From contig JAYTHP010000073.1 of NCBI GenBank assembly GCA_043732485.1, positions 1-37,065 of the forward strand: DNA of 37,065 bases. The letters are read 5' to 3'. The notes beneath the pieces are model-generated. The model was not told the DNA's origin. It ran no database searches and saw only the letters and a program-made list of their open reading frames with translations. This document shows positions 8,593-32,186 of the stretch, piece after piece. Each line of letters begins with the position of its first letter. Position 1 is the stretch's first letter. A program made the translations under genes and the position numbers. Source of the stretch: Oligoflexia bacterium (GTDB lineage: Bacteria; Bdellovibrionota; UBA1018).

Positions 8593-9825
<1,233 letters not shown>

Positions 9826-11817: not shown

Positions 11818-13545
11818 ATGTCGAACACTTTTAAAAATTTCAATCCTCTCCACTGGACCAAAACCCTCCCTCAAACGGAGCATAAACCCACCCACCGGTT
11901 GTTTTTAACCATCCTGCTGATGCTAGCTTTTTCCGGATCCGGCTGCAGCAATCAAGCAAGCACCCAGACCTCAACGAAGACGAATCCAGACGGAGGCACG
12001 ACCACCACCCCGACGCTTTCACCTTCGCCTATGGTGAAAAATGCCTTATTTTCACTAAAAATCTCGAGTGTGACCTCCTCAGGTCAGCCGGTAAGCCCCC
12101 CGATCTTCAATCAATCGGTCGGGAATTCCTCGTTAAAATTACAAGCAAGCGGCGTCTATAGCTTTTTGCTGATGGCACCGGACGCCCCCTCGACGCTGAC
12201 TTATACTGTGACGTTGACCAATAACCTTGGGGTAGGCTCGCAAAGCACGACAAGCATCAAGGCTTTTTCTCAGACCTTCACCCTGCTTCCCAATCAACCC
12301 TCCCCGCAGACCATTGCGCTTGCGCCTGGCAGTTACTCCATTAGCGTCGCCTCCAATCCAACCCCCGGCGTGATCCCGGCTAGCAACCTTTTTTCGGCCA
12401 GTGTGAGTTGCAATAGCGTTAATGCCTTTGTTCCCAATCAGGTGCTAGCACCCAATACCCAAATTAACGTGGTGCTAAACACCAACGCCCCACCGGCTGT
12501 CGCCAATCTCTTTGACTTTTACTTGAATAAAGCACCGATCCAAGGCAATGCTGCAGCAAACGTTGCAGGATCGCCTCCCTACTATTGCGCTTGGGACCAC
12601 TCAGGCTTTGGAGTGATTGATGGCCCGTGGGTCAATTGTCAAAATTTTATCGGACAAAACGCTGCCACCACCTTAAACCCGATTGGTGATTACGTGGCCA
12701 CCGCACCCTCAGGCAACAGCCTGGGCAACACGCTGCCTGGACGCAAAGTCACCTTAGAAGTGACCGACTCCTGTTTCTCGACCTTTTACCCGCTCACCCA
12801 GACCATTGCCTTCCCCCAGCCCCCAGCAGGTGCCGCAGCCCTGCCGATGGGAGGTTACTCGTTTCTTGATTTTACGATGATCCCCTCCTCTCCTGCTACC
12901 CTGGTCGGTCTACCCGATGAGCGTTACTGGAATACCGAGATTTTTGCCACCAACCCCCTCAATATGGCCTATGTCGTCGATACCGCCTTGTACCTGCCTA
13001 ATCAGCTTCCTTCTGACCTAACGACCCTGACCCCAAAATTTACAAAGCAGACCCTATCCTTGAATCAATACGTTAATATCCCTTACGGCTCAGGCGGAGA
13101 AAAGCAGGTCTACACTGCCGCCCTCAGCATTCCTAACTTGCTCAATTATGACTTCAACTCAGGACAGCTCACTTTCGCAAGCGGAAGTAACCTTGGAACC
13201 AACATGACCCTGAGTTACTCCAGTATCTCAGACGCCATCCTCGGCACCTCAATCGGTTTCGGGGGCACCACGGGCGGGCCGCAGACGACTTGCACCTACA
13301 GCATGTCAGAGCCTACCTACGCACCAAGCCCCACCGTGCTTTCTATTCCTTGCACCGGTCCTGCCACAGACACCTCGCTCGTGTTTGCCACCAATCTGGA
13401 ACTGGGAGGGACGTTTAGCTGTAACCCGGTCACGATCAATGGCCACACAATGTCTGTGCAAGGCTCCTTTAACGGCTTCCCGGGCAACCTGACCTTAGAC
13501 TGCCCGCTACCAGGCCCACCAGGACCGACGCTGACGAACAAATAA
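11818..13545 (+). CDS. Large surface lipoprotein, S/T/N/P-rich, with Ig/PKD-like segments
   Basis: ATG 11818 with a GAAGGT SD. Leader LFLTILLMLAFSGSG-C. PKD-like YYCAWDHSGFG and KVTLEVTD motifs, and paired Cys. Confidence 0.7.
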   Translation: MSNTFKNFNPLHWTKTLPQTEHKPTHRLFLTILLMLAFSGSGCSNQASTQTSTKTNPDGGTTTTPTLSPSPMVKNALFSLKISSVTSSGQPVSPPIFNQSVGNSSLKLQASGVYSFLLMAPDAPSTLTYTVTLTNNLGVGSQSTTSIKAFSQTFTLLPNQPSPQTIALAPGSYSISVASNPTPGVIPASNLFSASVSCNSVNAFVPNQVLAPNTQINVVLNTNAPPAVANLFDFYLNKAPIQGNAAANVAGSPPYYCAWDHSGFGVIDGPWVNCQNFIGQNAATTLNPIGDYVATAPSGNSLGNTLPGRKVTLEVTDSCFSTFYPLTQTIAFPQPPAGAAALPMGGYSFLDFTMIPSSPATLVGLPDERYWNTEIFATNPLNMAYVVDTALYLPNQLPSDLTTLTPKFTKQTLSLNQYVNIPYGSGGEKQVYTAALSIPNLLNYDFNSGQLTFASGSNLGTNMTLSYSSISDAILGTSIGFGGTTGGPQTTCTYSMSEPTYAPSPTVLSIPCTGPATDTSLVFATNLELGGTFSCNPVTINGHTMSVQGSFNGFPGNLTLDCPLPGPPGPTLTNK

Positions 13546-13961
13546 GCTCAGGCCTCGAAAACCTCCTCCCTCCCCACCCCTTATTGGAGGAGTCAGGAAA
13601 ACTAACACTCGATGCGATGACCGACCGCCTGCAAGAGCAGTTCCCTTTGGGGGCTCTGGCGCGCGGCCGGTCATCAACTTTAACAACTGCCACGCTCGCT
13701 GTTGGTCGTTGATTTTTCTAAAAATACCTTTCAAAATACTTCTCAAAAGACTGCTCGCTGCGACTGCCCTCATTCACGCATCAGAGCCAGGACTGTGCTC
13801 CGCGTTCGGCTAAGGAGGCCAAGAAAGCTCACCCCGCGCGCTCAAGAGCAGTCGGAGTGTAAAAACCATCCGATGAAACTTAAAATAATAAAAAAATAGC
13901 TTATTTTTAATTATCCTAGGCTTTGTTTTTGGAATAGGCTTGGAGACTTTTGGAAAAACTG

Positions 13962-13970
13962 TGTTAAACT
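13962..13970 (+). promoter_or_regulatory. Putative extended -10 promoter (TGtTAAACT) for the VWA lipoprotein operon
   Basis: TG at 13962-63 and TAAACT at 13965-70, 10 nt before ATG 13981. No good -35 box and no SD. Confidence 0.35.
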
Positions 13971-13980
13971 CAAGAAAGTA

Positions 13981-16113
13981 ATGCCAAGATCCATCTTATT
14001 CACCCAGCGTAGACCCACCACAACAAGGGCCATTCACCTGGCTAACCACCCAACACCGAACCGCCGCCGCGAACTGGGCCGCCTCTGGTCCGGAGTCCTG
14101 TCCGGTGTCTTCTGCGGAGTCCTGGGTTCAGGCGGACTTTTCGGCTGCAAAGCCCCCCTGAACCCGCTGGGGGCGCTCAGTGTTGGGATCATTGCTTCGC
14201 CCCGCCCGCCTGAAAATGTCCAGGTGAACTTCTGTACGGACCCGCCGCAAAAAGAGATCATTCAAGTCAAGTATTTGTTTTTAATCGACCATTCTGGCAG
14301 CAATAGCCAGAACCTGATCATTGACCAGTGCACGGGCTTTGTTGAGACCAACTTTAACCCGAGAGGGAGCGGCGTCCCTGCAGGTAGCAACTGTGAACTC
14401 AACCCCCAGAACAATCAATTTTGTACCGTCCAGCCGCCCACGGCCGTCCCTCCCCAATGCCCCAGCATCCAGCCCACCCCCTGCCCCACGGTCGGTTGCT
14501 CGCCTGTGGCTGCGATTAATAGTTACGTGCTGCCCAACCCCGATAACAACCTTTACGCCACTGACCCAAAAGGAACGTTTCGTTACCCGAGCATTATCGA
14601 ATTTGTGCAAGCCGTACAAAGCTCCTCGTTTGCCAAAAACACCGCTTTTGCCTTAATCGATTTCTCTTCCTCCGTGAGCACTTATCCGAGCAGTGGTGGC
14701 ACCCAGCCAGGAGCGACCCTAGGCTTTGAAACCAATCTCAGTAATTTCATCTGCCAGCTGCAAGCCGACCAAATGGGAATTAGCCCTTTTCCCCCGACCG
14801 TCGTCTGCCCCCCCCAGTTTCAAGCTCTTAATCCGGGTGGCGGATCCACCGATTACATTGGCGCCTTACAGGCCGCCCAGCAAATCATCACAGCCGATAT
14901 CCCGACACTCACTCAACCTACCGACTATGTGCTGATCTTTATCAGCGACGGCGCACCCATCGTCGGTTTTTCCAACGGCAATGGCTTCCAGCCGCTGTTT
15001 GCCAACTACGAATCTCAAACGCAAATCAATGGAATCATTCAGCAACTCATTGACTTAAAGAAAAACAGCGGCACCTACCTCGATAACATTAACCTTTTTA
15101 CTTACTATTACTTCGCGGCAGGCAACAAAGACTTGCAAGGCCAAGCGCTGCTCAAGTCTATGGCACAAACCGGCCTGGGACTGAGTTACGATCTTAATAG
15201 CGGAGAAAAACTCGACTTTTCGCAATTCTTACCCACGGCGCGAAACGTTTCTAAGTCTTTACTGAATGTGACAGTCACCAATAAGAACGTCAGTTACTGG
15301 CAAGGACCGCCGCTCAGTGCCGCCACTCAAGGACAACCGCTCTTAGACAGCGACGGTGATGGCATCCCCGATAGCGTTGAGGTCTTGCTCGGCTCAGATC
15401 CTTTTCAAGCTGACTCTGATGGCAACGGGGTATCGGATCTAGTGGAATACCGCTTAAACGGCTCACCTTGCGCAGGGCTCAGCCAAGGAGCAGGCTGCGC
15501 TCAGGCTGCTGCCACCCATTACCAGACGCTCTCGAAGCCCAACGTCCCCAATTGCGCGGCCTTAACTCCCTTGCCGAGCGCGTCTCCGGGAGGCCCACTG
15601 ATTTTCGCCGACACTGATCATGATGGCTTAAACGATTGCGAGGAGACGCTTCTGGGGAATCACGCCGGGATCAACAACCCGAGCTCCAACGGCAGTAACC
15701 TCTCAGACTGGCTGCTTTTTAAGAACAACGTCAATTTTCAAACCGGTACGCAGCCCGCCATTACGGTGCCTGATGCGAGCGGTAAGAGCATTTTTGATCT
15801 CATTCGCGCCAATCTCCCCGTCGGCATACCCTATCAAGAAATCATTCACCCCCAGCCGGCGCTTTACGCCTTGCAAACGATCAGCAGCTCGCTCACCCAA
15901 AGCTGCTTTCAACTCAACGTCTCAAACCTGCCGACCATCGGACCCAATAACCAGGTGATGGTAGAAGTCATGCTCTCCGATTCGCTCGGCAAACTGCATT
16001 ATCGCAAGGGCCTGAAAGCCTTCGCAGGCAACTCGCTGGTACTGAAATTTAACGACTGGAACGACCAGGCGGAGAAAACCTTAGGAACCTGGACGCAATG
16101 GGATCAACCGTAA
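13981..16113 (+). CDS. VWA-domain lipoprotein with thrombospondin type-3-like DxDxDG repeats (Myxococcus MtsB/MtsD-like)
   Basis: Lipobox LFG-C. NFCTDPP...KYLFLIDHSGS (MIDAS DxSxS), TDPKG, STDY, FISDG. Repeats DSDGDGIPD, DSDGNGVSD, DTDHDGLNDCEE. C-terminal CFQLNVSNL. Confidence 0.8.
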   Translation: MPRSILFTQRRPTTTRAIHLANHPTPNRRRELGRLWSGVLSGVFCGVLGSGGLFGCKAPLNPLGALSVGIIASPRPPENVQVNFCTDPPQKEIIQVKYLFLIDHSGSNSQNLIIDQCTGFVETNFNPRGSGVPAGSNCELNPQNNQFCTVQPPTAVPPQCPSIQPTPCPTVGCSPVAAINSYVLPNPDNNLYATDPKGTFRYPSIIEFVQAVQSSSFAKNTAFALIDFSSSVSTYPSSGGTQPGATLGFETNLSNFICQLQADQMGISPFPPTVVCPPQFQALNPGGGSTDYIGALQAAQQIITADIPTLTQPTDYVLIFISDGAPIVGFSNGNGFQPLFANYESQTQINGIIQQLIDLKKNSGTYLDNINLFTYYYFAAGNKDLQGQALLKSMAQTGLGLSYDLNSGEKLDFSQFLPTARNVSKSLLNVTVTNKNVSYWQGPPLSAATQGQPLLDSDGDGIPDSVEVLLGSDPFQADSDGNGVSDLVEYRLNGSPCAGLSQGAGCAQAAATHYQTLSKPNVPNCAALTPLPSASPGGPLIFADTDHDGLNDCEETLLGNHAGINNPSSNGSNLSDWLLFKNNVNFQTGTQPAITVPDASGKSIFDLIRANLPVGIPYQEIIHPQPALYALQTISSSLTQSCFQLNVSNLPTIGPNNQVMVEVMLSDSLGKLHYRKGLKAFAGNSLVLKFNDWNDQAEKTLGTWTQWDQP

Positions 16114-17207
16114 GCGCCGCCTCACCCCACCCCACTCGCATCCCCGCCACCCGAACCGAAGGCAGGGGCGTAATCCGGCTAAACCGCTTGCAACCCATGT
16201 TTTTGGTCTTGCTGCTGAGCGGCGTTATCGCTAGCTGCTCCTCCCCTGCCACCCCGCCGCTTGCCCCGCTCCCCAGCGGAACGCCGCTTCCTGCCCCTTC
16301 GCCTTCCGTCTCCTTAACCATCACCCACTATACCCCCCAAGCAGGGAAAACTTGGGTCGATTACTTCGTCTCCAACTTCTCCGTCCTGTTGGAAAACCAG
16401 CAACTGGTTTACAGCTCTGCGCGCGATGGGCTCAGTGACACCTTCAAGACGCAGCAAAACGCGTTTTACGGCTTTCTACCCAACTCCCCTTATAGCAATC
16501 CTGGGGCTTTTTTTTCTGATTTGATCCTTTTTCAGCTCGGGATCACCACCCAGCTGCAATCGGCGCTCTGGTGCCCGTCAGGCTTTCAAAACAGCGCACA
16601 CGACGCCTTGATTTATGCCGATGATCGCAACCCCAATCCGCAACCGAGCGTCTTTTTAGGACTCAACGACTGTGAAAAATCAACCTTACAGCTCAATCCG
16701 ACTTTAGTGAGCTTCTCGCAAGACGGCTTACCCGACTACCTCAAGGTGCGCTGTGGACTCAACCCCTTAAGCAGTTCCCAGTCGCAACTCTCACCGGCAG
16801 GCGACGGCCTTAGTAACTATGAAAAATGCAAACGACACCTGCCCCTACGAGAAAATGGCCTCAGTCCCGTCAGTCAAGCCTACGCCTACGACTACTCAAA
16901 AGTGATTAACCCCGATGCCAGTTACGACCTGCAAGTCAACAATATTGCTATCCTCAATCAGGGAGTCGATAATTTTCTAGCCATCTACATCATCGAAAGC
17001 GACGCGCAAAAAAATCTCAGCCTCGCCTCAGCCTACCTCCTCGTAAACCAGGTCACAACGAGCACGGCACTGAGCTTTCCGTACTGGGGAAAATCCGTCT
17101 CAGCGCAAGCGTCGCCCCCAGTAGTGGGCGGAGCGACTTCCCCGTCACCGCAGCCTAGTCTTTTACCTGCTGCTGCCCCCTTAACCAACGTGAGGCTATT
17201 TCCATGA
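16098..17207 (+). CDS. Lipoprotein paralogous to the C-terminal (TSP3-like plus beta) half of its neighbours, lacking the VWA domain
   Basis: Lipobox VIAS-C (alternative start ATG 16197). RDGLSD, GLNDCEK, QDGLPDY, GDGLSNYE, YDLQVNNI. Overlaps both flanking genes. Confidence 0.75.
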   Translation: MGSTVSAASPHPTRIPATRTEGRGVIRLNRLQPMFLVLLLSGVIASCSSPATPPLAPLPSGTPLPAPSPSVSLTITHYTPQAGKTWVDYFVSNFSVLLENQQLVYSSARDGLSDTFKTQQNAFYGFLPNSPYSNPGAFFSDLILFQLGITTQLQSALWCPSGFQNSAHDALIYADDRNPNPQPSVFLGLNDCEKSTLQLNPTLVSFSQDGLPDYLKVRCGLNPLSSSQSQLSPAGDGLSNYEKCKRHLPLRENGLSPVSQAYAYDYSKVINPDASYDLQVNNIAILNQGVDNFLAIYIIESDAQKNLSLASAYLLVNQVTTSTALSFPYWGKSVSAQASPPVVGGATSPSPQPSLLPAAAPLTNVRLFP

Positions 17208-19060
17208 GCAAAAAGCTGCCTGCTCAGCCCAGGCATCAGCCTGCCACCCGTCGCTGGCAGTTTTTCATCAGTAGTTTCAGGCGCCGGGTCATGAAAAGCA
17301 CTATCTCCAGCGTCTTCCTCACCGGCTTACTCACCGGTTGCGGCCAGAACACCTTGACCCCACTTGCGCTCGCGCCAAACTCACAAATCGTGCCCTCCAA
17401 CTTCATTGAGGTGAGCGCAAACTTCTGTACCCGGCCTCGGCAACCGGTCAAAAGCCTAACGAAGTATCTCTTCCTGATCGATCAATCGCTCTACAACTCC
17501 ACCCCGATCAATTTACCGGACAACCCTGTGAATACCTTTCCGCCCGATTTTGCCCCAGCCGACCCTCAAGGCTTTAGCCGCTTTGGTCCGCTGGTGGAGT
17601 TCACCCAGGCGGTGCAAGCGATGAACAACCCGAGTGCCATCACGCTTTGGAACGCCATCGGCTTTAACACCTTCGCCGCACCCAAAGCCAACTCGTCTGG
17701 CTCAGACATTACCGGGCTCTTCACCAACGTCAACGGTAACTTTACTGCCGCATGTCCCAATAGCCTATTTTTGACTCCCAAAGATTTCTTGCCCTGCTTA
17801 CAAGCCAACTGGTGGGGACGCTCCGTGCCGTTTGGTCCCGTGCCGCCACTGCCTGCCGATGAAGGCTGGACCGACTATATCGGAGCCCTCACCACCGCCC
17901 AAATGCTCATCACCCGCGACCTTAATTCCAACACTGCCACCCCTGGAACTGCCAACCTTAAGCCGACCTACCAAGTGTTCTTCATCTCAGGCGGCATGCC
18001 CTTTACCCTGCTCAACAATCCTAACACCCATTTTGCGAATGGCCAGCCGCTCAGTCAAATCACTACCGCCATTCAGGATCTACTGCAACTCCCTAGCCAA
18101 TTTGCTATCCCTTTCCAGGTCAACTTCCATACCGCCTACTACCCACCTACAGGTCAAGTCGGGCAGCCCATCCCGCAGGTCATTCAACTCCTCAAAGACA
18201 TGGCGCAAGTCTCACAAGGCCTTTTCATTAACTTAGGTGCCGCCCAAAACAACACCTACTTCCCACTCACCCCAACCCAATTCAACTTGCGCTCGCAACT
18301 CGTCGATATCTTTCTAGAAAATAGAAACCTCGTTTGGTGGAACGACGGTCGCTTGCTGCTCGATTCCGACGGCGACGGTCTGCCTGATCTCTTAGAAACC
18401 CCAGCAGGCTCCAACCCAAATTTGCCAGACAGTGACGGCAACGGTGTGTCTGATTACGTCGAATACCGCTTGAACGGTAAACCCTGCAACGACCCGCAAT
18501 GCGCCAAGAACAACGCCAACGCCTTTGGCGTCTGCTCAGGCTTAAATCCCATCACCAGCGCAAACGGCACCACCTATCCAGATAGCGACAACGATGGCTT
18601 GAACGATTGCGAAGAAACGCTCCTCAAGGCTAACCTCAATCAGTTCAGCACGCCTGCAAACATGATTCCTGACTTTCTGGCCTTAAAAAACTGGATCCCC
18701 ATCCAGCCCTCCTCCCTGGGTGCCTTCGCAATCCCCTTTAGCGATCTGCTCACGCCCTATCTGAAACTAAAATACGATCTTCCCACCTCGATTGACACCA
18801 GCCAGTCGGCCTCCTCAACCACCACCTACACCAGACGCAGCAGTGAGCTCAGCCTGGTGAGCTCGCCTAACGTCGATCAAGATTGCTACCAAATGCTGTT
18901 TCACTCAGTCAACACCTTGAATTTCCCTGCCACCCTCAAAATCCATCTAATCGAAAACGCCTCCCTCACGCAAGACACCCCCGTGCTGCGCACCGCGGAA
19001 AAAACCCTACCAAGCAAGAACGCTCAGCGACTTGACTTCGTGCCCAGTGACTTTAATTAA
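17204..19060 (+). CDS. Second VWA + TSP3-like lipoprotein (Mts-like) with a degenerate MIDAS
   Basis: ATGA overlap with the upstream gene. Lipobox LLTG-C. NFCTRP...KYLFLIDQSLY, WTDY, FISGG. DSDGDGLPD, DSDGNGVSD, DSDNDGLNDCEE. Confidence 0.8.
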   Translation: MSKKLPAQPRHQPATRRWQFFISSFRRRVMKSTISSVFLTGLLTGCGQNTLTPLALAPNSQIVPSNFIEVSANFCTRPRQPVKSLTKYLFLIDQSLYNSTPINLPDNPVNTFPPDFAPADPQGFSRFGPLVEFTQAVQAMNNPSAITLWNAIGFNTFAAPKANSSGSDITGLFTNVNGNFTAACPNSLFLTPKDFLPCLQANWWGRSVPFGPVPPLPADEGWTDYIGALTTAQMLITRDLNSNTATPGTANLKPTYQVFFISGGMPFTLLNNPNTHFANGQPLSQITTAIQDLLQLPSQFAIPFQVNFHTAYYPPTGQVGQPIPQVIQLLKDMAQVSQGLFINLGAAQNNTYFPLTPTQFNLRSQLVDIFLENRNLVWWNDGRLLLDSDGDGLPDLLETPAGSNPNLPDSDGNGVSDYVEYRLNGKPCNDPQCAKNNANAFGVCSGLNPITSANGTTYPDSDNDGLNDCEETLLKANLNQFSTPANMIPDFLALKNWIPIQPSSLGAFAIPFSDLLTPYLKLKYDLPTSIDTSQSASSTTTYTRRSSELSLVSSPNVDQDCYQMLFHSVNTLNFPATLKIHLIENASLTQDTPVLRTAEKTLPSKNAQRLDFVPSDFN

Positions 19061-19144
19061 CCCCTCAAACGCCCAGGAAAGCAGCGCAATCGCAAAAACC
19101 ATATAATACAATAAATTCGGTTACTTAAAAATATTTAATTCATT

Positions 19145-19173
19145 TTTACATTTTTTATTACCTCTGATAAACT
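19145..19173 (+). promoter_or_regulatory. Putative sigma70 promoter TTTACA-17-TAAACT with extended -10 TG
   Basis: TTTACA at 19145-50, TG at 19165-66, TAAACT at 19168-73, in an AT-rich intergenic region. Confidence 0.55.
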
Positions 19174-19219
19174 ATTACAAAGGAGATGGGAAAGATAGAT
19201 ATACCTCCCCCTAAAGCCT

Positions 19220-19561
19220 ATGTCGCAATCAACCCTCATGCCTGCTTTGCTGCCTCCCCTCACCCCACGTCAAGAGGCTTGCAACAAGAGGTACGCTTAT
19301 TACCGAACATCAAGCGCCTCTCAGCCCATCAGCCGCTCTTCCCTGGCTACGCTCACGCTCTTGCTCGCTTTCCTCACCGCGCCTGTGCTCACTCCCCTGG
19401 CTTGGGCCGCACCCGGCGCCAAAGAGATTCAAAAGCCGCTTGAGATCTCCGGAGCGTCGCGCAAGTTTAGTCTCAGCCTGACGCTTAAAAGCAATAAGGA
19501 CCAACTCGAGACCCGCGTGCGCACTCAGTACCGCGACAAATTTAATCGGGTGAATTTCTAA
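19220..19561 (+). CDS. Small secreted protein, GltF/CglF-like
   Basis: Signal ending in LAWA. The short mature peptide LEISGASRKFSLSLTLKSNKDQLETRVRTQYRDKF resembles the GltF pattern (IeG...R..F/Y). It lies next to a glt-like cluster. Confidence 0.5.
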   Translation: MSQSTLMPALLPPLTPRQEACNKRYAYYRTSSASQPISRSSLATLTLLLAFLTAPVLTPLAWAAPGAKEIQKPLEISGASRKFSLSLTLKSNKDQLETRVRTQYRDKFNRVNF

Positions 19562-19844: not shown

Positions 19845-20910
19845 AAAAAAAAACTTTTTGCGCTACTCTAGCTCTTGCACCTCGTGCTGCTGACCCTCAA
19901 CGCTGCCCAGCAGCAAGGGATCACTGCGGTCGCGTTAGATCACTTCTCCAGGCTACCTTTAGCATTGATTGAAACTCAGCTCTATCCGAGCCTCAGCGTG
20001 CCTGAAATCATCCACTTTGCTATCACGAATCGACGCTGCAGACTGAAGCTGCCTGACTACTTTCAAGAGCTCCAGAAAAAAAAATACCGACTTATTCAAC
20101 ATAATTATCGGGGACCGGGAGTGGGTCAGCTATTTTCAAGATAGAGGGAATTTAAATAGGATAGAAAAATTAGATCTCTCTGGCTCGACTTTTAACCTCA
20201 GCTTGCTTTGCCTGCTTCCCAAAAATCTCAGCCAATTAAAGTTATCAGGCGTCAGGCACTTTAATGGCACACTCTTTGGCGAAAGGGGCGCACAAGCTCT
20301 AGGTCTAGTCTTAGCTAATCACAAAAAGCTGACTGTTTTGTTTCTGAACGACAACCATTTGGGACCAGAAGTAGTCTAAAATTTAAATATAAAATTATTA
20401 ATAAATTTAACCCAGTTGATCCTTTCTGGAAATCCGCTCGGACCAACGGTCATCGAAAGACTGAACCGAAAAAATATTAAAAAATTAAGACTTTTCAACA
20501 ACTATTTTAGGATCGAAGGAGTTCGCACACTCAGCTCATAATAAACATTAAATTATTTAAGTATACTGATTCTCGTAACGAACAATTTAGGCGTAGCAGG
20601 AGTGCAAGCACTCAACTTAAACTTGTTATCTAGGTTGGCTATTTTGGATTTGGGATCAGAGGGCTTACAAGCCATCGACTTAAGCGCTTTGAAGCATTTA
20701 AGTCATCTCGGTCTAGGCAACAATCAGCCAGGAGTCCAAGGACTACGCGCACTCAACGTATCAGATATTTTTCCTCACCTTCGCAGATTAACAAAGACTT
20801 GTCTTTTTTGCAGGCCACGGAAACCTCTTCCCCTGCGACCATCAGGACCTGAAAAACCTCCTACCAAAGGACTGCGATCATCATGCCCGTTAATTTACCT
20901 GGACGCTTAG
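19845..20910 (+). pseudogene. Decayed signal peptide + F-box-like + ribonuclease-inhibitor-type leucine-rich-repeat protein
   Basis: KKKLFALL*LLHLVLL (TAG at 19869). F-box-like FSRLPLALIETQLYPSLSVPEIIHFAITNRRCR. Frameshift most simply placed in the A9 run at 20076-20084. LRRs LTVLFLNDNHLGPE, LTQLILSGNPLGPT, LILVTNNLGVAG, LSHLGLGNNQPGVQG. In-frame TAA at 20377, 20539 and 20542. AT-rich. Confidence 0.85.
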
Positions 20911-21044: not shown

Positions 21045-21872
21045 TCAGAAGATAAGATTAAAATCCACCATCACGGCAATCCCGGCTGCAATGGGGCTAG
21101 AATCGGCCTGCAACAAAGGATCGTTATAGACATAGCTCCAGCCTGCTGCACCGAGGGTGGTGGAGTAATGCTGGGCGTAAAAAACCTGATTGATCTTCAA
21201 CTGATAACGATCCTGAAGCGGAAACACCTCACTGAGGAGGGCACCGTAAATCAGCCCGCCTGTTGCAAGCGGCAACTGAGGGGTAATATAGTTATTTTGC
21301 GTGGTTTGCACTTGGACGTTGGGAAAGCTCAAAAACTCCCAACCCACGAGCGGCCCAAAGCTTAACACCTTGCCTAGCCGCAGTTGCAGACTCGAGCGAA
21401 AAGTATAATGAATGACGTTGAGCTCGGAGTTGGCATTCAGGTAAGTGAGTCCCAGCATGGCGTTAACCACTTCCCAGTGCAAAAAATCATTACGCCAGTG
21501 CAATTGCCCCAGGCTGATTGCTACATCGGGCGTGTGATTGAGGTAAGCAATTGGCGCCAGGCCAAAGCCAAAATAAAAGCCAGTTTCCTTGGGCTTGGCG
21601 CGATAGGAATCCAGCAGCGGAAACTGCTCAGAGAAGCGCTGAGCCCAAGCCTGCTCATCAGGCGCTACTAACAAGGTGAGCGCCAAGCAAAAGCCAATCA
21701 GTGCCTGCTTAAACCATCGCCTCGACCCTTGCCTCAAGCGCGCCTGCCAGAAGATCAAAGACCGAACTTTCCTGGGAAGGTCTCGAGTGAACTGAACTGT
21801 CTTGCGGCTACTGGCTTGTGTTCTCATCACCTTGTTACCTAACTCTGTTTTTTTCTCGCTCACTTGCGCCAA
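21045..21872 (-). CDS. Outer-membrane beta-barrel protein (GltA/B/H-like position)
   Basis: Signal ending in AWA, amphipathic strands (FYFGFGLAP, FGPLVGWEF), C-terminal VDFNLIF. Last gene of the minus-strand glt-like operon. Alternative start ATG 21827. Confidence 0.65.
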   Translation of the reverse strand: MAQVSEKKTELGNKVMRTQASSRKTVQFTRDLPRKVRSLIFWQARLRQGSRRWFKQALIGFCLALTLLVAPDEQAWAQRFSEQFPLLDSYRAKPKETGFYFGFGLAPIAYLNHTPDVAISLGQLHWRNDFLHWEVVNAMLGLTYLNANSELNVIHYTFRSSLQLRLGKVLSFGPLVGWEFLSFPNVQVQTTQNNYITPQLPLATGGLIYGALLSEVFPLQDRYQLKINQVFYAQHYSTTLGAAGWSYVYNDPLLQADSSPIAAGIAVMVDFNLIF

Positions 21873-24900: not shown

Positions 24901-25254
24901 CTTTTGCGACTGCAACTCGGCTAGCTCCAAGTACAGCTCGGGCAAAAATGGCGCACTCAAGCTCTCGGTGATTTGCGCTGAAAGCGTTTTAATTGACTTA
25001 TCGACCCGCTCGAGCATCTGCGACAGGCCTTGCCGAAACTGCGCGTCGTTTCTAGCCCCCGCTCCAGCCTCACTTCCAGCGCCAGCCCCAGTGCTTCCCG
25101 CACCCGTCCCTGCGCTCGGTATCACTTTCTTAGTTGTAGCCGCTACTGCTGCCGCCCCTAAGCCTGAGGCAAATGCTGCCGTGACCAGTAGCGCCACTCC
25201 GCGCCGCCCGCTCCGCAACGCTTGCCTGATGGCAGGTAAATTTTTTACTGGCAT
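21904..25254 (-). CDS. Large periplasmic TPR protein, GltD/AgmU-like
   Basis: 1116 aa with a signal peptide. APFLPELYLELAEL, EAITTYKMILHDFPRF, VLKQYPQS..A, A.DAAELILDYY and other TPR-like helical pairs. Overlaps the upstream gene by 10 nt. Confidence 0.75.
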   Translation of the reverse strand: MPVKNLPAIRQALRSGRRGVALLVTAAFASGLGAAAVAATTKKVIPSAGTGAGSTGAGAGSEAGAGARNDAQFRQGLSQMLERVDKSIKTLSAQITESLSAPFLPELYLELAELQSQKSTTLYYIQMEVTQGESAPSDPAFAPVTAAQKEAITTYKMILHDFPRFAKRPTVLFNLALAAKSIDETRDFMLHAGMVLKQYPQSEEAFKCKLLIGQFYLDQKDFSGALNYFLPLTQSSFVYERNVARHKAGLSLIAVERFKEALHFFELVATDRELKPQDNPYEVSLTQKTVKNDLKRQALLDSVVAYTYVFPKNPDPVAYYARVAGSAALFQEVLEKLVLRYIAQKHYATALPLLRKLGELAFNPQKSLTIYRDVLTAIEPADRVRIPVAEMRSLLSKYAEWVQFYQIPPQVQAAANHFLENEVRELGTKAHELARLSHQPSALLERARDFYLLYLDYFFEPVQRMNIANDLAQVYFQQKDYLACGQRYLQLFSGQYGTASGRESLLQNAILCLSQKAEMPYYENLRLHGLLIKSIGEYFVFNPQKRSDPQLNLALLKANYEQGFFPETLEQLYRFIGQFSRQPQAADAAELILDYYNTRQDFPALQAAAKRLERTHWSSSSFRAKLAKIEKMASSKGLQESIRKSAGFDDFSQGKSYLEAALKSDNVTLRNQILKEALVKSKRERDIQTFLSSASAIAQKERDPEQKSEILRSVVQEHLQMTQFSVGLERLAGIYQDPGLPERQKAEAFQQAVGVALALRSAVAFNRLMSQTERWSALSPDLKHRVSQFLADSLAAPFPLDSAAKGLLARAELDPELLLAAALAENSLPASLRARVASVTRTTCSQNPGAAVCQWSRFVRLERSERLNFLNQVRQAAAEPSAIEAQAKIFAQLTNQLKALEGVASPQVALAVSLRSAEAFAEFGQFLKRVSQKHPELQAVLSQKVKETQNDETAYRAKCQQLASSSAILAGTLAARSCQAGTQQALGAALFARSQSAGQLGGGGESSDHDLPQAPGGGEALKLQKELFGETKPQGSTLLKMIHFYYDQRDYHFAAAAADIGQGSFPAQKDEFQALLGCSVMHLGFLEEAAFHLKSASGASDPQKRACESQLKGLMQ

Positions 25255-27056
25255 TGGTTCACCAACGGCACTTGAAAGTGACTGCGCTCGTCAGCCCAAA
25301 GCTCGCCAAACTGCTCAAAGCGCAGCTCGATGTCTTGTACATCCGTTCCTGCCAGCTTCTGGTCCTTTCCACTGACGCCGCCATTTTCACCGCCACTACC
25401 TCCCACCGAAGCTAAAGCGCTTGGGACTGACCCAGACGCAGACGCAGACTCAGCAACTGATTTTCCGCCGTCTTGGGCATTCAATTGCGCCTTAAAGACC
25501 TGATCGGGATTCTCTTTTTCGCGGATGACATCAAACTTGAGCAACTTCAACTCCTCTGACAAATCCACCACCGAGCGAGCCGCCTGTTCCAGCGCTTCGG
25601 TTTGGGCAATCTGCAGCTCCGCTTTTTGCTTCCTCAGCTCCGATTGGTAGATAAAGCGGGCCGCCTCACGCAGACCCGCTTCCACCACAAGCTGCGCCTG
25701 CTCGGCTTGCAACTCAGCGACGTTTTGCTGCCTGGCAACGTATTGCCCATTTTGCGGCAGCGAGATCTTGTGCAACTGCGGCAGGCTCTCAAGCGGCACT
25801 CCCGTTTGAATGCCCTTTAAGGTCGTGCCAAACTGCTTATCAAACGACTGAATTAGGATCTGCGCACGGTCGCCTGCACAGACTCTACGGTAGATTAAGG
25901 CTCGTAAAAAATAACTTTCTAGATCGATGCTGTGATCCCGCTCAAAACGCATCAAATTGTACAAAACTCCCAAGGCTTCACTATAACGTTTGAGATGAAA
26001 CAGATTCCAAGCGCTTTCTAACCAATCAAGCGCCGTGACCGACTCCCACTGCAGTAAAAACCGCTGATAGACGTCGAGTGACTGCTCGTACTTCGCTTGC
26101 TCAAAATAAACCCGCGCCAAGTTTCTCGCCACTTTTTTGACAAAACTAGCGCGCTCGGGTAAGCCCTTTTCCTGGCTAAGCACCTGGAGCAGCAACTGCT
26201 CAGTTTGTGGCAAGTCATGATTGGCGTAGACCACGAGCGACTGGTAGAAGAGGTATTTGGCAAAACCACCACCGACACCCAAACCACTCACGCCTGCGCC
26301 TGATAACCCTTGCCCCACCTGCACACCATGGTCCACTTGCTCAAACGACGCTTGCGCCCACTGTGGACTTAAGGACTGAGAAAAAAAGATCCCCTGATAC
26401 AAGTAGTAGGAATTAGAAAAACCGCTGTCATCACGAGCAGGCGACAAGTCACCGTAGGAAAACAACTGAGTCAGGGACCGCGGATAACCACGATCGAGAA
26501 TAGCCACCAGCCCCCGGAAAGCAGCCTCTTTCGAGGGCGCATCCGTGAAAAACAAAATCATCCGCGCCGCAAGCGCCGCGACCCCAGCATCCAGGCGCTG
26601 ATCCAAAAGCGCCGCTAGCAGCTTTTGCATCTTCTCACCATCAGCCATCACAGGCGGTTGGCTCCCCTCCCACTTTTTCTCACGCCTCGGGCTGGAAATG
26701 GCAGACGCCCGCTCTGCGCCCGGCCTAGACCCTAAGCCGGATGGCATTGCGACAGTGGACTTCCTGGCTGCACGCCCACCGAGGGCGCGAGGCATCACAC
26801 TAGACCCAGCTGCCGTCTTCCCGCGCGCCAAGTGCCTTGCTTGTCTCGCAGGCTGCGACTTTTTGCGAGCCCACGCCTGATCGATTGGCAAGAGCAGCAA
26901 CAACGATAATAGGGTCATTTTTCCCGCTAGAGAAGACGCCAAGGAACAGGTGAGACTAAAAAAAAAATGCAACGCCCTTGGATCACGCAGCCCCGAGGCT
27001 CGTGAGTTTGCTACCCTACTGGTTGCGCAGTGGAAGCAAGGTGCTATGCCCATCAA
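25245..27056 (-). CDS. TPR protein, GltC-like
   Basis: LARVYFEQAKY, WLESAW, ESYFLRALIYRRVC and C-terminal FEQFGELWADERSHF...NQC, which matches the GltC-type WpFxGEyWxDE...C tail. ATGA-coupled to the upstream barrel gene. Confidence 0.75.
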   Translation of the reverse strand: MMGIAPCFHCATSRVANSRASGLRDPRALHFFFSLTCSLASSLAGKMTLLSLLLLLPIDQAWARKKSQPARQARHLARGKTAAGSSVMPRALGGRAARKSTVAMPSGLGSRPGAERASAISSPRREKKWEGSQPPVMADGEKMQKLLAALLDQRLDAGVAALAARMILFFTDAPSKEAAFRGLVAILDRGYPRSLTQLFSYGDLSPARDDSGFSNSYYLYQGIFFSQSLSPQWAQASFEQVDHGVQVGQGLSGAGVSGLGVGGGFAKYLFYQSLVVYANHDLPQTEQLLLQVLSQEKGLPERASFVKKVARNLARVYFEQAKYEQSLDVYQRFLLQWESVTALDWLESAWNLFHLKRYSEALGVLYNLMRFERDHSIDLESYFLRALIYRRVCAGDRAQILIQSFDKQFGTTLKGIQTGVPLESLPQLHKISLPQNGQYVARQQNVAELQAEQAQLVVEAGLREAARFIYQSELRKQKAELQIAQTEALEQAARSVVDLSEELKLLKFDVIREKENPDQVFKAQLNAQDGGKSVAESASASGSVPSALASVGGSGGENGGVSGKDQKLAGTDVQDIELRFEQFGELWADERSHFQVPLVNQCQ

Positions 27057-27838
27057 AAATTAAAACCCGTTTCGGCAGAAAACATTAAGAAATTGCCAAT
27101 CGATCCCATACTATCTCTGACCCCAAGCTTAAAGGAAAAAGCATCCGTCAGAAAAGCCTCAAGCGAAAAACCCAGATTTAACACCGGCAAAATATTAGGG
27201 ACGTTTTGATGAGTGTAATTCAGGGCCCCGCCACCCACTAAAAAGGACCCCCGCAGATACTTTAACGAGCTGCGAAAAAACAGCATTTTACCGAACAAGA
27301 AATGGTAGGAAAAATTGCTCGACAACAAATAATTGACGTGCTGGATGTAGGTGGGCTTTTCAGTATAAAGGTTAGCAAGATCGGCCGTTAATTTGCTTTG
27401 AAAATTAATAAAATAATTTAAATCCAACAAATTCCAGGAAAAACTCTCTCCCAGACCTTGAGTGTATCCCACCGCTACCCCTAAGGAATTGTAATAAGGG
27501 TCAAAAGGATAACTCAAAACCCCAAAATGCAGGCTATGATTTGAAAAATTTATGTGATCGATGGCTTCAATCTTTTGCTCATCGACGGCTATTTTCTGGT
27601 ATACTCCTGAAGCAGCAGCAGGCTCGAGACTAGCAAACACCAAAGCCACTGCGACAACGGCTGACGTCTTCAACCAGGCTGCCAAGCGAGCACCCACCAG
27701 CACGTAGATCCTGGCAGCAGAAGTGGGCGCACGCTTAATCAGTCGCTGGCTTTGAAAAAAAAGACCAGACCCTACGAGCGAATCTTGGGAAAAAATCACG
27801 CGGCTAAAGGGCTTGTAGTAGGACGAAAAAAGATTCAT
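27053..27838 (-). CDS. Outer-membrane beta-barrel domain protein, GltA/GltB-like
   Basis: PFDPYYNSLGVAVGY, LTADL, FLFGKMLFF, FLVGGG, GVRD and terminal GFNF fit the myxobacterial/Bdellovibrio GltA/B barrel pattern. Confidence 0.75.
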   Translation of the reverse strand: MNLFSSYYKPFSRVIFSQDSLVGSGLFFQSQRLIKRAPTSAARIYVLVGARLAAWLKTSAVVAVALVFASLEPAAASGVYQKIAVDEQKIEAIDHINFSNHSLHFGVLSYPFDPYYNSLGVAVGYTQGLGESFSWNLLDLNYFINFQSKLTADLANLYTEKPTYIQHVNYLLSSNFSYHFLFGKMLFFRSSLKYLRGSFLVGGGALNYTHQNVPNILPVLNLGFSLEAFLTDAFSFKLGVRDSMGSIGNFLMFSAETGFNF

Positions 27839-28353: not shown

Positions 28354-29070
28354 ATGAATAACTTTGTTTCTTTTATTGCACACAACTTAGCTCACGTAGC
28401 CCCTATTTTGATCGCAGCCGCCTTTGCCATCGTCATTATTGCAGAACGATTTTATGCCTTGATGGTGGCGTTTCCTCTCACGCGGTCGCGGGGGTTTTTT
28501 GAGAAGATCAGGCAACTCGTGATGTCTGATCGCATCAATGATGCGATCGCCTTGTGTGATCGCTATGACAATAAGCCGGTGATCTTAGTCATCAAAGAGG
28601 GTTTGATACGGGCCCATCAGCCAGAATCGCTGATTGAACACGGCTTGCAAATTGCGGTCAGTGAGGCGCTCGAGAGGATCCAGAGTCGCACTAGCTTTTT
28701 AGCCACCATCGCGAACGTCTCCACCCTGCTGGGTCTTTTTGGGACGATCGTCGGCCTGGTGCAATCCTTCGAGGCGGTTGGCAGTGCCAACGCCCAAATG
28801 CGCTCCACCCTTCTTGCCAACGGGATCTCGACTGCGATGAATGCCACTATGCTAGGGCTAGCGGTGGCTATTCCTTGTATGATTGCCTTTAGTTTTCTGA
28901 TGAACCGTGCCAATCAGTTACAAGCGGAAATTGATCGCTTTGCCGTCAAAATTTTGGATCTTTTAAAGCAACGCTATTACTCAGCTGATCTGGCGTCGCC
29001 TGACGTGCAAACCCGCACGGAAATGACGCTTGAGCAACAGCCCCACCAACGCTCCAAAAGGGAAGAGTAA
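28354..29070 (+). CDS. MotA/TolQ/ExbB proton channel family protein (AglR-like)
   Basis: Three TMs. IIAERF, LATIANVSTLLGLFGTIVGLVQSF, LANGISTAMNATMLGLAVAIP. Confidence 0.93.
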   Translation: MNNFVSFIAHNLAHVAPILIAAAFAIVIIAERFYALMVAFPLTRSRGFFEKIRQLVMSDRINDAIALCDRYDNKPVILVIKEGLIRAHQPESLIEHGLQIAVSEALERIQSRTSFLATIANVSTLLGLFGTIVGLVQSFEAVGSANAQMRSTLLANGISTAMNATMLGLAVAIPCMIAFSFLMNRANQLQAEIDRFAVKILDLLKQRYYSADLASPDVQTRTEMTLEQQPHQRSKREE

Positions 29071-29072
29071 GC

Positions 29073-29540
29073 GTGAGTTCGGTTGATTCAGGATCGGGAC
29101 AGGACTTTGATCTCAACATTGCCCCGATTATTGACTGCTTCACCGTGCTCATTACCTACCTTTTGGTCTCGGCCTCGTTCATTAGCCTCAAAGTCATTGA
29201 AGCAGGCGTTGCGGTGTCGGATCCTAATGCCGCAGCGGCGCAACCCCCTCCCCCTACACCCCCGCAACCACCACTCAATGCTGAAGTCTTTCTCCTGAAA
29301 ACCGGCGCAGCGCAGTTAAAAGTGACTGGTGGACCCAGGAACCTCAATCAGCTGCTAACGCAAAAAAACCTCACCGAACTGAAAAACACGGTGACGATCT
29401 TAAAACAAAGCTACCCTACTTTCAATGAGATCAGCGTTTCAGCGGAAGCCGACGTGCCCTACTCCGACCTCCTGAAAGGCATTGAACCCCTCAAGGAAGT
29501 GATCGCCAAGGTGTTTATTGCCGGAACGGCAAGACAGTAA
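29073..29540 (+). CDS. ExbD/TolR family protein (AglQ-like)
   Basis: GTG start. DFDLNIAPIIDCFTVLITYLL with the conserved TM Asp, and ISVSAEADVPYSDL. Confidence 0.9.
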   Translation: MSSVDSGSGQDFDLNIAPIIDCFTVLITYLLVSASFISLKVIEAGVAVSDPNAAAAQPPPPTPPQPPLNAEVFLLKTGAAQLKVTGGPRNLNQLLTQKNLTELKNTVTILKQSYPTFNEISVSAEADVPYSDLLKGIEPLKEVIAKVFIAGTARQ

Positions 29541-29574
29541 CAAGCGTAAGAAAGAAAAAAAGAGAACGGATGCC

Positions 29575-30060
29575 ATGAAAAGCCACTTCCTTAAACGCAA
29601 GCCACCTTCGCAGGAAATGGCGCTGCAGATTACCTCCATGGCTGACATCTTCATGATTTTATTAGTTTTTTTACTGAAAAGCTATGCCACCAGCGTCTCC
29701 ACCTTGACCTCGTCAAGCGGCATCACGTTGCCAAGCTCGCGCGCAGGCTCAGCCTCCAAGGAGACTTTAAAGCTTGAGGTGTCTGCAAGCAGCATCTCAG
29801 TCGATGACAAGGTGGTGCTCGGGTTAAGTAACTTCAATTTTGCCCCGCAAGAAATCCCTCCCCCGGGACTGGGGCGCTCGGAAACACTTTACCGCTCGCT
29901 GCTGGAAAAACGCCGGCGCATGCCACAAGCTAATCTAGATCCCAACTTACTGCTCTTTGTCGATCGCAAGGCCCCCTACTCGACCCTGCAATCGGTGTTG
30001 GCCTCAGCAGCAAGCGCTGGATTTGTGGATTTGCAACTCGTGGTGATCCACGAGGAGTAA
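29575..30060 (+). CDS. ExbD/TolR family protein (AglS-like)
   Basis: LQITSMADIFMILLVFLLKSY, ITLPSS, LLFVDRKAPYSTLQSVLASAASAGF. ATG 29575 is preferred over TTG 29518. Confidence 0.9.
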   Translation: MKSHFLKRKPPSQEMALQITSMADIFMILLVFLLKSYATSVSTLTSSSGITLPSSRAGSASKETLKLEVSASSISVDDKVVLGLSNFNFAPQEIPPPGLGRSETLYRSLLEKRRRMPQANLDPNLLLFVDRKAPYSTLQSVLASAASAGFVDLQLVVIHEE

Positions 30061-30266
30061 GAACACACCACGGGTAACGACTTGGAATCACGAAAAAAAG
30101 GACACAAGAAAGAGGACAAAAAATACGACAAGTGAGTGGAAGCGCTAAGCGAGTGAACGCTCAGACAACGCCGCGCTTTGGAGAACCTCACTATTGAGAA
30201 CCTTATCAGGTGAAGAGAGCACAAAAGAGAGACACAGAGAGTCAAGGACCCTCAAAAACAAGAATT

Positions 30267-32186
30267 ATGCTAAACCCCAAAACCCACCCACTTAAGCGCA
30301 ACGAGGGCTACCTGGTAACGACCTACCAGCGAGGTCACGCGCGGCCGATCATTTGGCACGCCGAGCACCCGACCCTGATTCACGAGCATGGCTGGTACAT
30401 GGAGCGCACCGCCTCAGGGACGCTGCAATTAGCTTATAAAGTCCCAAAAATCATCGATCAGCGCACCCAAATGGTGGCCAAGAAAATTTATATCCTGAAT
30501 GCCAAAAAAATCAGGACAGGCGAGATCTTCACCTCCCCCATCCCTTGCCCTGCAACAGGTGGCAGCCTAAGCCCTTCCGGCAAACCTCAATTCATTCAGC
30601 TCTCCGTTCGCTCGTTACCCAAGAGCCGGCCGGCTTTTATGCCAAACAAAGCCCACTCGCGGGACTTATCCTCAGGACGCGAAGACTATTACTTGTACTC
30701 TGGGATTCGCTATTATCTCAACGACTCGCAATTCTTCAAGAAAAGCTATCTTGCTGAGATCGATGGCAATGCCATTTTTCGCATCACGCTGGTCGGCGGT
30801 GTTTTTCAAATTAACCCGCTGCAAAAAAACCTGATCTTTAAGACCCACGGCGCAGGACGTAAGGCCTTAAGCCCTGGCGTCATGGTCCCGCTCTCCCCCC
30901 AACAATTTGCCCAAGGCTCCTTGCAGTTGGGTAAATTTTGGTGGCGCATCAATACCGTCTCCAACGACGTGCTAATGAACCAAGCGCTGCTTGCTGAGGC
31001 CGCCGATTCCCCGAGCGTGCAAGATCAGCGCAATTTTTTAAAAATCACCCAAACGATCTTTGCCTCGTTACTCTTCATGGGCCTGGCCTTGAATCACTGG
31101 AGCAAAAAAACGCCCCCCAGCCTCAGCACGCAAACGGTGGATCTGACGCAACTGCCGATCGCCCAGCCCAAGCTGCTGCCACCTGTTCCCAAACCGCTGC
31201 CAACCCCAGTGCGTAGACCTCCTCCTCTGCCTCCCAAGCCAAAACCTTTGCCCAAGCCGCAACCCCCCAAACCTGCGCCCAAACCTCCCAAAGCGCCACC
31301 AGCGCCACCAAAACCTCCCAAGCCACAGGTGCCACAACCTCGCAGACCCGTGACGCCACCCCGCCCAGCGCGTCCTAGGCAGCAGCCTACTCCTCCTCAG
31401 CCGATTCGTCGCGCTCCCCCTGCTACTAGAGCACCTGTCACTCCCAGGCGCCCGCCACCTCAGGCCGTCGTAAGCCGCCCCGTCGCGCTCCCCCCCGGTC
31501 CCACGGCAGCGCAGCTGAAGCAGCAGCAAAACCAGCAAGTGCAAGCTAACTTACTAAAAACTTTAGGCTTTCTCTCAGCCTCCAAGAATCACCCGTCCTC
31601 CACCCTCCCGCCGCCTTCGCAAGATACGGCTGCGCGTTTTCAGGGTCCAGCAGGCGGAGGCTCGGCGCTGGGGCGTAACTCGCGCTTAAAAGACCTCACC
31701 GCGCAATCCAGCGAGGAAGGCAGCGATGATGCGACCACAAGCCTCCATAACTCGCGAAATATCAGCTCCGGCAGTCTCAGCCGTGGCAAAATCCGCGGCG
31801 AAGGGGTGCGCGGTAAAATCACCTTACCCCATGCCTCAGGCGGTGGCGCACTTGGCGCTTCCTTACGCGCCCAACTGACGCTCTCAGGCCCAGGCCAACT
31901 CTCAGAATCAGCCATTGAAAAGGCCTTAAGCAAACACATGGACCAGTTGCAGTTTTGCTACGAAAAAGCCCTGCTCACTGACGCAACGCTTGCAGGATCA
32001 GTTTCGCTCGAATGGGTGATCCAAACCAGCGGCTCGGCTTCGCAACTAAAAGTGGTGCGCTCGCAGCTCAATAACGGCAGCTTGCATTCCTGCCTGATGG
32101 GCGTGATTGCGAAGATCCAGTTTCCAGCTCCCAAAGGCGGTCCAGTCACCATCAGTTATCCGTTTTCCTTCAATCCCAACGGGTAA
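30267..32186 (+). CDS. GltG-like TonB-type energy transducer (AgmX/PglI C-terminal domain)
   Basis: Cytoplasmic N-domain, single TM (IFASLLFMGLAL), long Pro/Lys-rich linker, and C-terminal IEKALSKHMDQLQFCYEKAL...LAGSV.LEW.I...C....I....FPAPKGGPVTISYPFSF. Start is 30267 or 30210. Confidence 0.88.
   Translation: MLNPKTHPLKRNEGYLVTTYQRGHARPIIWHAEHPTLIHEHGWYMERTASGTLQLAYKVPKIIDQRTQMVAKKIYILNAKKIRTGEIFTSPIPCPATGGSLSPSGKPQFIQLSVRSLPKSRPAFMPNKAHSRDLSSGREDYYLYSGIRYYLNDSQFFKKSYLAEIDGNAIFRITLVGGVFQINPLQKNLIFKTHGAGRKALSPGVMVPLSPQQFAQGSLQLGKFWWRINTVSNDVLMNQALLAEAADSPSVQDQRNFLKITQTIFASLLFMGLALNHWSKKTPPSLSTQTVDLTQLPIAQPKLLPPVPKPLPTPVRRPPPLPPKPKPLPKPQPPKPAPKPPKAPPAPPKPPKPQVPQPRRPVTPPRPARPRQQPTPPQPIRRAPPATRAPVTPRRPPPQAVVSRPVALPPGPTAAQLKQQQNQQVQANLLKTLGFLSASKNHPSSTLPPPSQDTAARFQGPAGGGSALGRNSRLKDLTAQSSEEGSDDATTSLHNSRNISSGSLSRGKIRGEGVRGKITLPHASGGGALGASLRAQLTLSGPGQLSESAIEKALSKHMDQLQFCYEKALLTDATLAGSVSLEWVIQTSGSASQLKVVRSQLNNGSLHSCLMGVIAKIQFPAPKGGPVTISYPFSFNPNG

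Follow-up and report, generated by a model that had tools for sequence, protein, structure and literature searches.

A G5-branch Agl-Glt gene cluster with its own motor and adjoining Mts-like lipoprotein genes in a member of the Bdellovibrionota

Which branch of the Agl-Glt systems has joined a motor and Glt-like proteins to genes for surface lipoproteins in a member of the Bdellovibrionota, and what such a machine might do with these lipoproteins, are the questions raised by contig JAYTHP010000073.1 of Oligoflexia bacterium GCA_043732485.1, whose whole length of 37,065 nucleotides is referred to here as the window. The window (contig C73) is part of a 2.58-Mb genome, G000, that is 89% complete. 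The initial annotation of this DNA had supposed a non-myxobacterial host, and the host is indeed a metagenome-assembled genome (MAG) of the Bdellovibrionota, with named homologues from Oligoflexia, Bdellovibrionales and Bdellovibrio. Open reading frame (ORF) calling and family scans confirmed all 13 cluster genes at their noted positions, including those for the motor, GltG, barrel, tetratricopeptide repeat (TPR) and lipoprotein components (Table 1). The genes form three blocks, i.e., a motor block (28354-32186, + strand), a divergent block (27838-21045, - strand) and a lipoprotein block (11818-19561, + strand). The reading that we prefer, and to which we give an even chance, is that a G5-branch Agl-Glt machine with its own motor displays, holds and moves four surface lipoproteins for sticking between cells or to a surface and not for directed gliding.

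The Myxococcus-like references were taken from G465, a single contig of 8.97 Mb in the family of a Myxococcaceae MAG, whose AglR, AglQ and AglS have the lengths (245, 162 and 194 amino acids) that Luciano et al. (2011; PMC3169522) list in their Table 1; the label G5 was set in G465 by the position of gltD beside MtsD. Comparison of the GltD profile of the window's family with the four GltD copies of G465 gave an E-value of 4e-101 for the copy beside MtsD and of 2.5e-18 or weaker for the others. As a single sequence, the window GltD matched the G5, G4 and G1 (gliding) copies at E 5e-43, 0.045 and 0.13, respectively. The window GltC matched G5 GltC at 1.5e-9, against 0.003 elsewhere, and the best single-sequence match of barrel A was the G5 barrel (E 1e-14), with an hhalign probability of 99.8% to the G5 barrel and of 95-96% to GltA and GltB. 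The window GltG matched G5 GltG at E 5e-21; in the reverse search, G5 GltG was slightly nearer the GltG encoded on contig C141 of G000. The GltD-like protein has 84 cluster representatives at E<=1e-30, its NCBIfam matches were to generic TPR families with nothing specific to GltD, and a direct search of the genome contigs with it gave no match.

Two GltD trees, a quick one of 45 rows and a careful one of 22 rows (subsampled for speed; LG+G4), gave an identical picture. One group (98/96) of 15 sequences united the myxobacterial G5 copies with two clades of the Bdellovibrionota, type A (100/100), to which the window belongs, and type B, while G1, G3, G4, the three copies of genome G225 and the C141 copy fell outside it; the outgroup had only seven rows, of which three were long. 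The stem of the window's clade is long (1.3 substitutions per site), and a grouping of this clade with the gliding GltD was rejected (approximately unbiased test, p 1e-31). The Glt homology proposed earlier for the long TPR protein, GltC, the first barrel and GltG is thus borne out by searches, tree and hhalign and, as judged from sequence, the cluster is an Agl-Glt locus of the G5 branch and not a gliding (G1/G2) or Nfs (G3) locus.

This placement bears directly on the idea of a compact gliding engine, in which the motor would drag an adhesin-loaded outer-membrane complex along the cell and lipoprotein V1 would serve as CglB. [quoted passage not shown] Luciano et al. (2011; PMC3169522) described four expanded core Agl-Glt clusters in Bdellovibrio, which glides without GltH, GltI, GltJ and GltK, and a 2026 review, in the parts available, calls the gliding and surface machinery of Bdellovibrio unidentified (PMC13104615). 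GltD is, however, on the G5 and not the G1 branch, and the mutant of the M. xanthus G5 gltD homologue MXAN_1327 was described as having no motility defect, with no function assigned (PMC3169522). Moreover, the cluster has no GltE, the system occurs in only about 10% of the phylum, four complete genomes from the genus sampled most heavily there did not yield it (best E 1e-21), and G000 has a second Agl-Glt cluster. We consider a gliding engine unlikely, if deserving of serious attention.

Several components of the gliding machine were sought specifically. Neither GltE, GltH nor GltK matched in the window by hhalign, and GltE searches elsewhere in G000, within its 89% completeness, returned generic TPR matches only, although a TPR protein weakly similar to GltE is encoded near two related loci (G328 and G390). 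No match to GltI (queried with a partial sequence), GltJ or GltK was found in G000, in agreement with the absence of these three from the window that had been noted before; the absence of GltE had gone unremarked.

Homologues of AglR, AglQ and AglS of the Agl-Glt core are all present in the cluster, and both ExbD-like subunits (PF02472, E 2e-10 and 1e-12) retain the transmembrane (TM) Asp. The GltG-like protein scored 88.9 bits against NF033768 (cut-off 40) and matched NF033760 at E 7e-21; no FHA match was found in its cytoplasmic N-region. The second Agl-Glt cluster of G000 (L001, C141:44757-59511) encodes a motor, an 1141-aa TPR protein, a GltF-like protein, GltG, GltC and a barrel, with no Mts-like gene within the 20 kb examined. 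Its GltD is very divergent, and its motor falls within the type A group of motors (ExbB, 58% identity), which suggests a motor duplication or swap. The motor tree contains at least three motor lineages among the G5-branch clusters and, with the C141 motor placed within type A, indicates that motors have been exchanged between clusters. Single-sequence matches favoured the orphan M2 motor as the G5 motor, and the motor tree was noncommittal.

The lipoprotein block consists of four + strand ORFs with a signal peptide and Cys, followed by a small secreted ORF. The four had been annotated as surface lipoproteins, with VWA and DxDxDG repeats sharing polypeptides; this combination was confirmed in two (V1 and V2), whereas T is the repeat half only and L belongs to another family. 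Single-sequence searches linked the VWA-TSP3 lipoproteins to MtsB, MtsD and MtsE at E 1e-7 to 1e-11, the names MtsB and MtsE being presumed for the reference VWA genes from gene order. The MtsD equivalog model NF047639 gave 38 bits against the required 800 or more, MtsC had no match in G000 and MtsF was not found. The MIDAS of V1 is intact (D103, S105, S107, T290 and D323), while the VWA domain of V2 has lost two of the five MIDAS ligands (DQSLY...T...SGG), as has its nearest relative in G085. One of three VWA paralogues likewise has a dead MIDAS in the myxobacterial mts loci of G465 and related genomes, a parallel in a separate lineage. The fusion of VWA and DxDxDG repeats in single polypeptides, offered earlier as a novelty, is shared with the Myxococcus-like MtsD and MtsE. 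Lipoprotein T aligns to positions 310-533 of the VWA-TSP3 profile (A1) and is kept in relatives. A Cys-x(2-6)-L-x-x-[LIVM] segment near the N-terminus, counted without a shuffle control in two alignments that overlap, is present in 33 of 37 rows of one and 37 of 42 of the other, and is a candidate docking strand.

Lipoprotein L is a divergent member of its family that has moved upstream; its longest ORF begins at 11575, with 11818 as the probable ATG. Of the 12 genomes of the order that carry the cassette, 11 have this family, and the PKD lead from ESM features (0.88) was scored on a relative of L. In other members (L082:3567-4946 and 19 other loci) a Cys-GGGGGG-x-x-P-x-x-x tail without a membrane anchor is conserved; the Cys-GGGGGG-x-x-P part is degenerate in L itself. 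The glycine tail may serve as a signal, so far undescribed, for sorting or docking. Lipoprotein L was also compared with MtsC, MtsF and GltK, each of which was ruled out by hhalign.

The AlphaFold model of V1 (pLDDT 77) had VWA and integrin I domains as its top Foldseek matches (22 PDB matches at E<=0.001), and a sequence search of the PDB matched integrin alpha-X alone (E 0.02). An integrin-like fold, together with patchy presence (12 of 116 genomes of the order), a small genome with a leucine-rich-repeat (LRR) family and a predatory phylum, would suit a prey- or host-attachment device in which V1 would make contact with the surface of a target cell and the motor would tighten it. Genes for killing or secretion are not conserved nearby, however, and mts of Myxococcus has been linked to social motility and surface matrix, the latter as a suggested contribution of the mts cluster to building the matrix (PMC6593220, in the part available). 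Such a device seems to us distinctly improbable.

Whether the lipoproteins belong to the machine is addressed by their distribution. Profile A1 was used at a cut-off of E<=1e-12 in a sample of 401 genomes of the phylum; it matched 51 genomes, and 12 of the 116 of the order. In one scan with A1 the matches were for the most part generic TSP3 repeats. The GltD profile A3 (E<=1e-60) matched 40 of the 401 genomes, and all 40, within the 51, also carry an Mts-like VWA gene, although 14 of the 40 had supplied the profile and were chosen for adjoining cassettes, kin are non-independent and only two or three candidates were scored per genome. The C-terminal domain of GltG, used as a control, was found in 387 of 401 genomes, so the co-occurrence of GltD and VWA genes exceeds co-presence with any Glt. 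Most of the 11 genomes in which only A1 matched have short (about 300 aa) VWA-type ORFs.

The neighbourhood survey supports the linkage of lipoproteins and machine that had been proposed. Complete loci, with the three blocks on one contig, number 12 including the window and show 10 block orders in five families; that of G187 has one VWA gene fewer. VWA genes also stand beside 11 of the 17 type B Glt stretches fetched, and Mts-like genes adjoin a motor in two loci of the Myxococcota (L003 and L006). G5 and mts lie back to back in three genomes of the Myxococcaceae family (G465, G448 and G434), and the statement in the initial annotation that mts neighbours a glt paralogue is correct also for M. 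xanthus, where MXAN_1327 is the G5 gltD homologue and MXAN_1334 is MtsC, said to act in motility other than A-motility (bioRxiv 2022.03.08.483542, in part). The VWA tree places the neighbours of type A, type B and myxobacterial GltD in groups of their own, which match the GltD clades. None of the outcomes named beforehand as contrary (no Glt homology of the TPR and barrel proteins, a lipoprotein operon unlinked in relatives, or a plain orthologue of the gliding locus) was found.

It could be argued that the lipoprotein cassette is independent of the machine and merely co-inherited, given six genomes with orphan cassettes and the weak co-divergence with GltD. All 26 genomes with a strong cassette match (E<=1e-90), however, have a G5-branch GltD somewhere, and the linkage was kept through 10 rearrangements and recurs in two phyla, so that simple co-inheritance is in our judgement highly improbable. 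The orphan cassettes, of the form T-V-L, are in G130:C1, G315:C1, G289:C2, G236:C20, G395:C206 and G362:C105, in genomes whose only G5-branch machine is type B. Because all six lack a type A GltD and have a G5-branch GltD elsewhere, their cassettes may use the machine in trans. Genome G089 (C67, C107, C138 and C304) has several cassette copies, in some of which genes for VWA, GltD and L contain a lone in-frame stop (TGA or TAG).

A mechanism can be sketched on the AlphaFold-predicted Myxococcus model, in which AglR5QS acts on GltG, GltG surrounds GltD, GltF bridges to GltC, GltC lies under the barrels and the N-terminal strand of CglB sits between GltA and GltB (PMC11761067, as far as available). 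The window has predicted counterparts for every link of this model except GltE, GltK and the cytoplasmic platform. By analogy, proton flow through the AglRQS-like subunits would drive a stroke on GltG, whose TonB-like end would bind GltD; GltF would bridge GltG and GltC, GltC would grip barrels A and X, and the barrels would keep the lipoproteins, by their lipidated N-termini, on the outer face. Ligand binding by V1 would then go through a metal, calcium-binding repeats would lend the stalk stiffness, and the part of V2, T and L would be structural. Because GltI, GltJ and GltE are missing, the machine would act locally, much like Nfs in spore-coat assembly, and likely without the cytoskeletal track of gliding. 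To the parts, G5 ancestry, motor Asp residues, V1 MIDAS and conserved linkage, all directly established, this model would add the export, display or pulling of the adhesins, which we infer. A bolder version of the preferred reading, to which we would assign a rather low probability, holds that G5-Mts is a third ancient Agl-Glt class beside gliding and spore coat, common to Myxococcota and Bdellovibrionota, in which, in the window's clade, the motor would build and tension a four-lipoprotein surface fibre or mesh, with the N-terminal strand and glycine tail for docking or strand exchange, barrel X as a new outlet and V1 as a metal-dependent tip.

The motor and the barrels could also be read as a TonB-like uptake system, in which surface lipoproteins would capture a polymer for the motor to pull through the barrels, consistent with the ExbB/ExbD/TonB-like ancestry and with the PKD-like binding lipoprotein lead. 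Both barrels are, however, only about 200 aa long, with no plug or TonB-receptor family match, and no transporters or hydrolases are conserved nearby; uptake would be a very improbable function. Barrel X is confined to the window's clade among the fetched loci and has 16 homologues, none of them named. It matches barrel A weakly (probability 74% over 49 columns).

Several observations weigh against a G5-branch machine that displays and moves these lipoproteins. By hhalign, barrel X has no detectable homology to GltA, GltB or GltH, and its identification as GltB or GltH was ruled out. The GltF-like gene agrees with that designation in position, size and a weak motif (I-x-G-Q...R), but its hhalign probability to GltF is only 4% and its identity is uncertain. 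The trees of motor and GltD do not agree. In six genomes (G130, G315, G289, G236, G395 and G362) the 11-40 kb fetched with the type A cassette contain no Glt gene, and G214 and G269 carry the Glt operon and VWA genes on different contigs. The co-phylogeny of GltD and VWA genes is evident in matching clades but weak at fine scale, where the distance correlation of GltD with the lipoproteins is r 0.12-0.29 in 11 type A genomes; in the same genomes, lipoprotein-lipoprotein and lipoprotein-ExbB distances correlate at r 0.6-0.9. The word dedicated, applied earlier to this system, is overstated in view of the cassettes away from Glt and this weak co-divergence. Finally, no paper was found that links a G5 mutant to an mts phenotype, the mts paper itself being outside the search.

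Table 1. Features of the cluster and of the LRR remnant in the window.
Feature	Position	Strand	Evidence or remark
Lipoprotein L ("F1" family), Cys-rich, beta-rich, PKD/Ig-like lead	11818..13545	+	Profile of 21 relatives, E 1e-14
Mts-like lipoprotein V1: VWA, three DxDxDG-type repeats, C-terminal beta domain	13981..16113	+	AlphaFold, Foldseek
Mts-like lipoprotein T: half with repeats and beta domain, lacking VWA; DxDxDG degenerate	16098..17207	+	NF047639, E 2e-5
Mts-like lipoprotein V2: VWA, MIDAS degenerate, three DxDxDG-type repeats	17204..19060	+	Sequence/alignment
Small secreted protein, GltF-like by position, size and weak C-terminal motif	19220..19561	+	Kept in 13 loci
Broken LRR gene, frame change and stops	19872..20910	+	Pieces match intact paralogue G000:C88:1945-3288, E 1e-11 to 1e-13
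Barrel X: predicted outer-membrane beta-barrel	21045..21872	-	ESM features 0.96 to outer-membrane protein barrels
GltD-like periplasmic TPR scaffold, G5 branch, 1116 aa	21904..25254	-	E 5e-43 to G5 GltD; trees
GltC-like periplasmic TPR protein	25245..27056	-	NF033756, E 9e-6 (below cut-off); top match G5 GltC, E 1.5e-9
Barrel A: GltA/B-family outer-membrane barrel, G5 type	27053..27838	-	TIGR04565, E 2e-7
AglR/ExbB-like motor subunit, three TM helices	28354..29070	+	ExbB/MotA PF01618, E 2e-26
AglQ/ExbD-like motor subunit, TM Asp21	29073..29540	+	ExbD PF02472
AglS/ExbD-like motor subunit, TM Asp43 of ORF	29518..30060	+	ExbD PF02472
GltG-like transducer: cytoplasmic N-region, TM ~276-294, Pro-rich linker, TonB-like C-terminal domain	30210..32186	+	NF033768, NF033760

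The gap at 19.6-21.0 kb was considered as a site for a fourth lipoprotein or GltE, which was ruled out: the gap is a broken LRR gene, as its sequence indicates unrelated to the machine, and the fourth lipoprotein has moved upstream. The intact paralogue on C88, with a hydrophobic segment at its N-terminus, is matched by six further ORFs of G000; together they form a small family of LRR genes, which may indicate a life in association with eukaryotes. On one side, the cluster adjoins an ordinary tgt-yajC-secD-secF-recJ operon (2660-9825, - strand) and a 365-aa ORF (10467-11564, + strand) with a signal-like N-terminus and low-complexity ends, for which no family match and, in the fetched loci, no homologue was found. 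On the other are a predicted 638-aa lipoprotein (32764-34680, - strand) with 14 Cys, a Cys-rich tail end and a weak DUF7015 match, without a homologue in G000 or the fetched loci, and a short, possibly truncated ORF with an O6-methylguanine methyltransferase DNA-binding domain (35746-36051, - strand). Promoter and terminator scans of the window were at chance level (12 against 10.3 and 25 against 26.5, respectively).

The mts locus has reportedly been tied to social motility by Zhang and co-workers in 2007, going by a title. Since 2011 no function has been assigned to G5, and we found no mechanism in the literature for the cohesion locus mts. Our literature searches, which left the majority of subscription papers and the supplementary material of Luciano et al. 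(2011) outside their scope, found no paper that joins G5 to mts or describes this clade. The joint conservation of G5 and mts across two phyla and through many rearrangements leads us to predict that they are one machine, a prediction directly testable in M. xanthus, in which the G5 gltD mutant has already been made (PMC3169522). The Bdellovibrionota version, whose 13 genes include those for the motor, the transducer, the barrels and the adhesins, offers a compact model of lipoprotein display and force, and it supplies candidate adhesins for a phylum in which the 2026 review calls the surface machinery unidentified (PMC13104615).

The cluster is a variant of Agl-Glt on the uncharacterised G5-Mts branch, with barrel X, L, T and the in-cluster motor as clade-specific features. 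With M. xanthus G5 and mts it shares the GltD clade, the top matches of GltD, GltC, barrel and GltG, a single GltA/B-type barrel and adjoining lipoproteins with VWA and DxDxDG, one degenerate MIDAS in each; the window has in addition the in-cluster motor, barrel X and lipoproteins L and T, and is without MtsC (MYXO-CTERM), an MtsF-like protein, the 827-aa first gene and the GltE-like TPR protein. With M. xanthus gliding (G1, G2, M1, CglB and CglD) it has in common an AglRQS-type motor with two ExbD-like subunits, GltG, GltD, GltC, a GltA/B barrel, a VWA-MIDAS lipoprotein and DxDxDG repeats. In gliding, the VWA lipoprotein CglB is held by barrels and its MIDAS Asp is essential, as described in the available parts of two studies (PMC9946355, PMC11761067). 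The window differs from gliding in its GltD clade, in that GltE, GltH, GltI, GltJ and GltK were not found in the cluster, in NCBIfam scores for GltC, GltG and CglD far below cut-off, and in the location of its adhesin genes in the cluster, whereas cglD, which also encodes DxDxDG repeats, is in the account available never clustered with glt genes (bioRxiv 2023.10.19.562135). M. xanthus Nfs (G3) is likewise a Glt paralogue without GltI, GltJ and GltK, but its GltD is of another clade and it has two GltA/B-type barrels and homologues of GltE and GltH. The "expanded core" of Bdellovibrio bacteriovorus (e.g., Bd0828-0838) resembles the window in having motor and glt genes in one cluster without GltH, GltI, GltJ and GltK, whereas the three GltDs of the complete genome G225, which comes from the genus sampled most in the phylum and is probably Bdellovibrio, lie outside the G5 clade.

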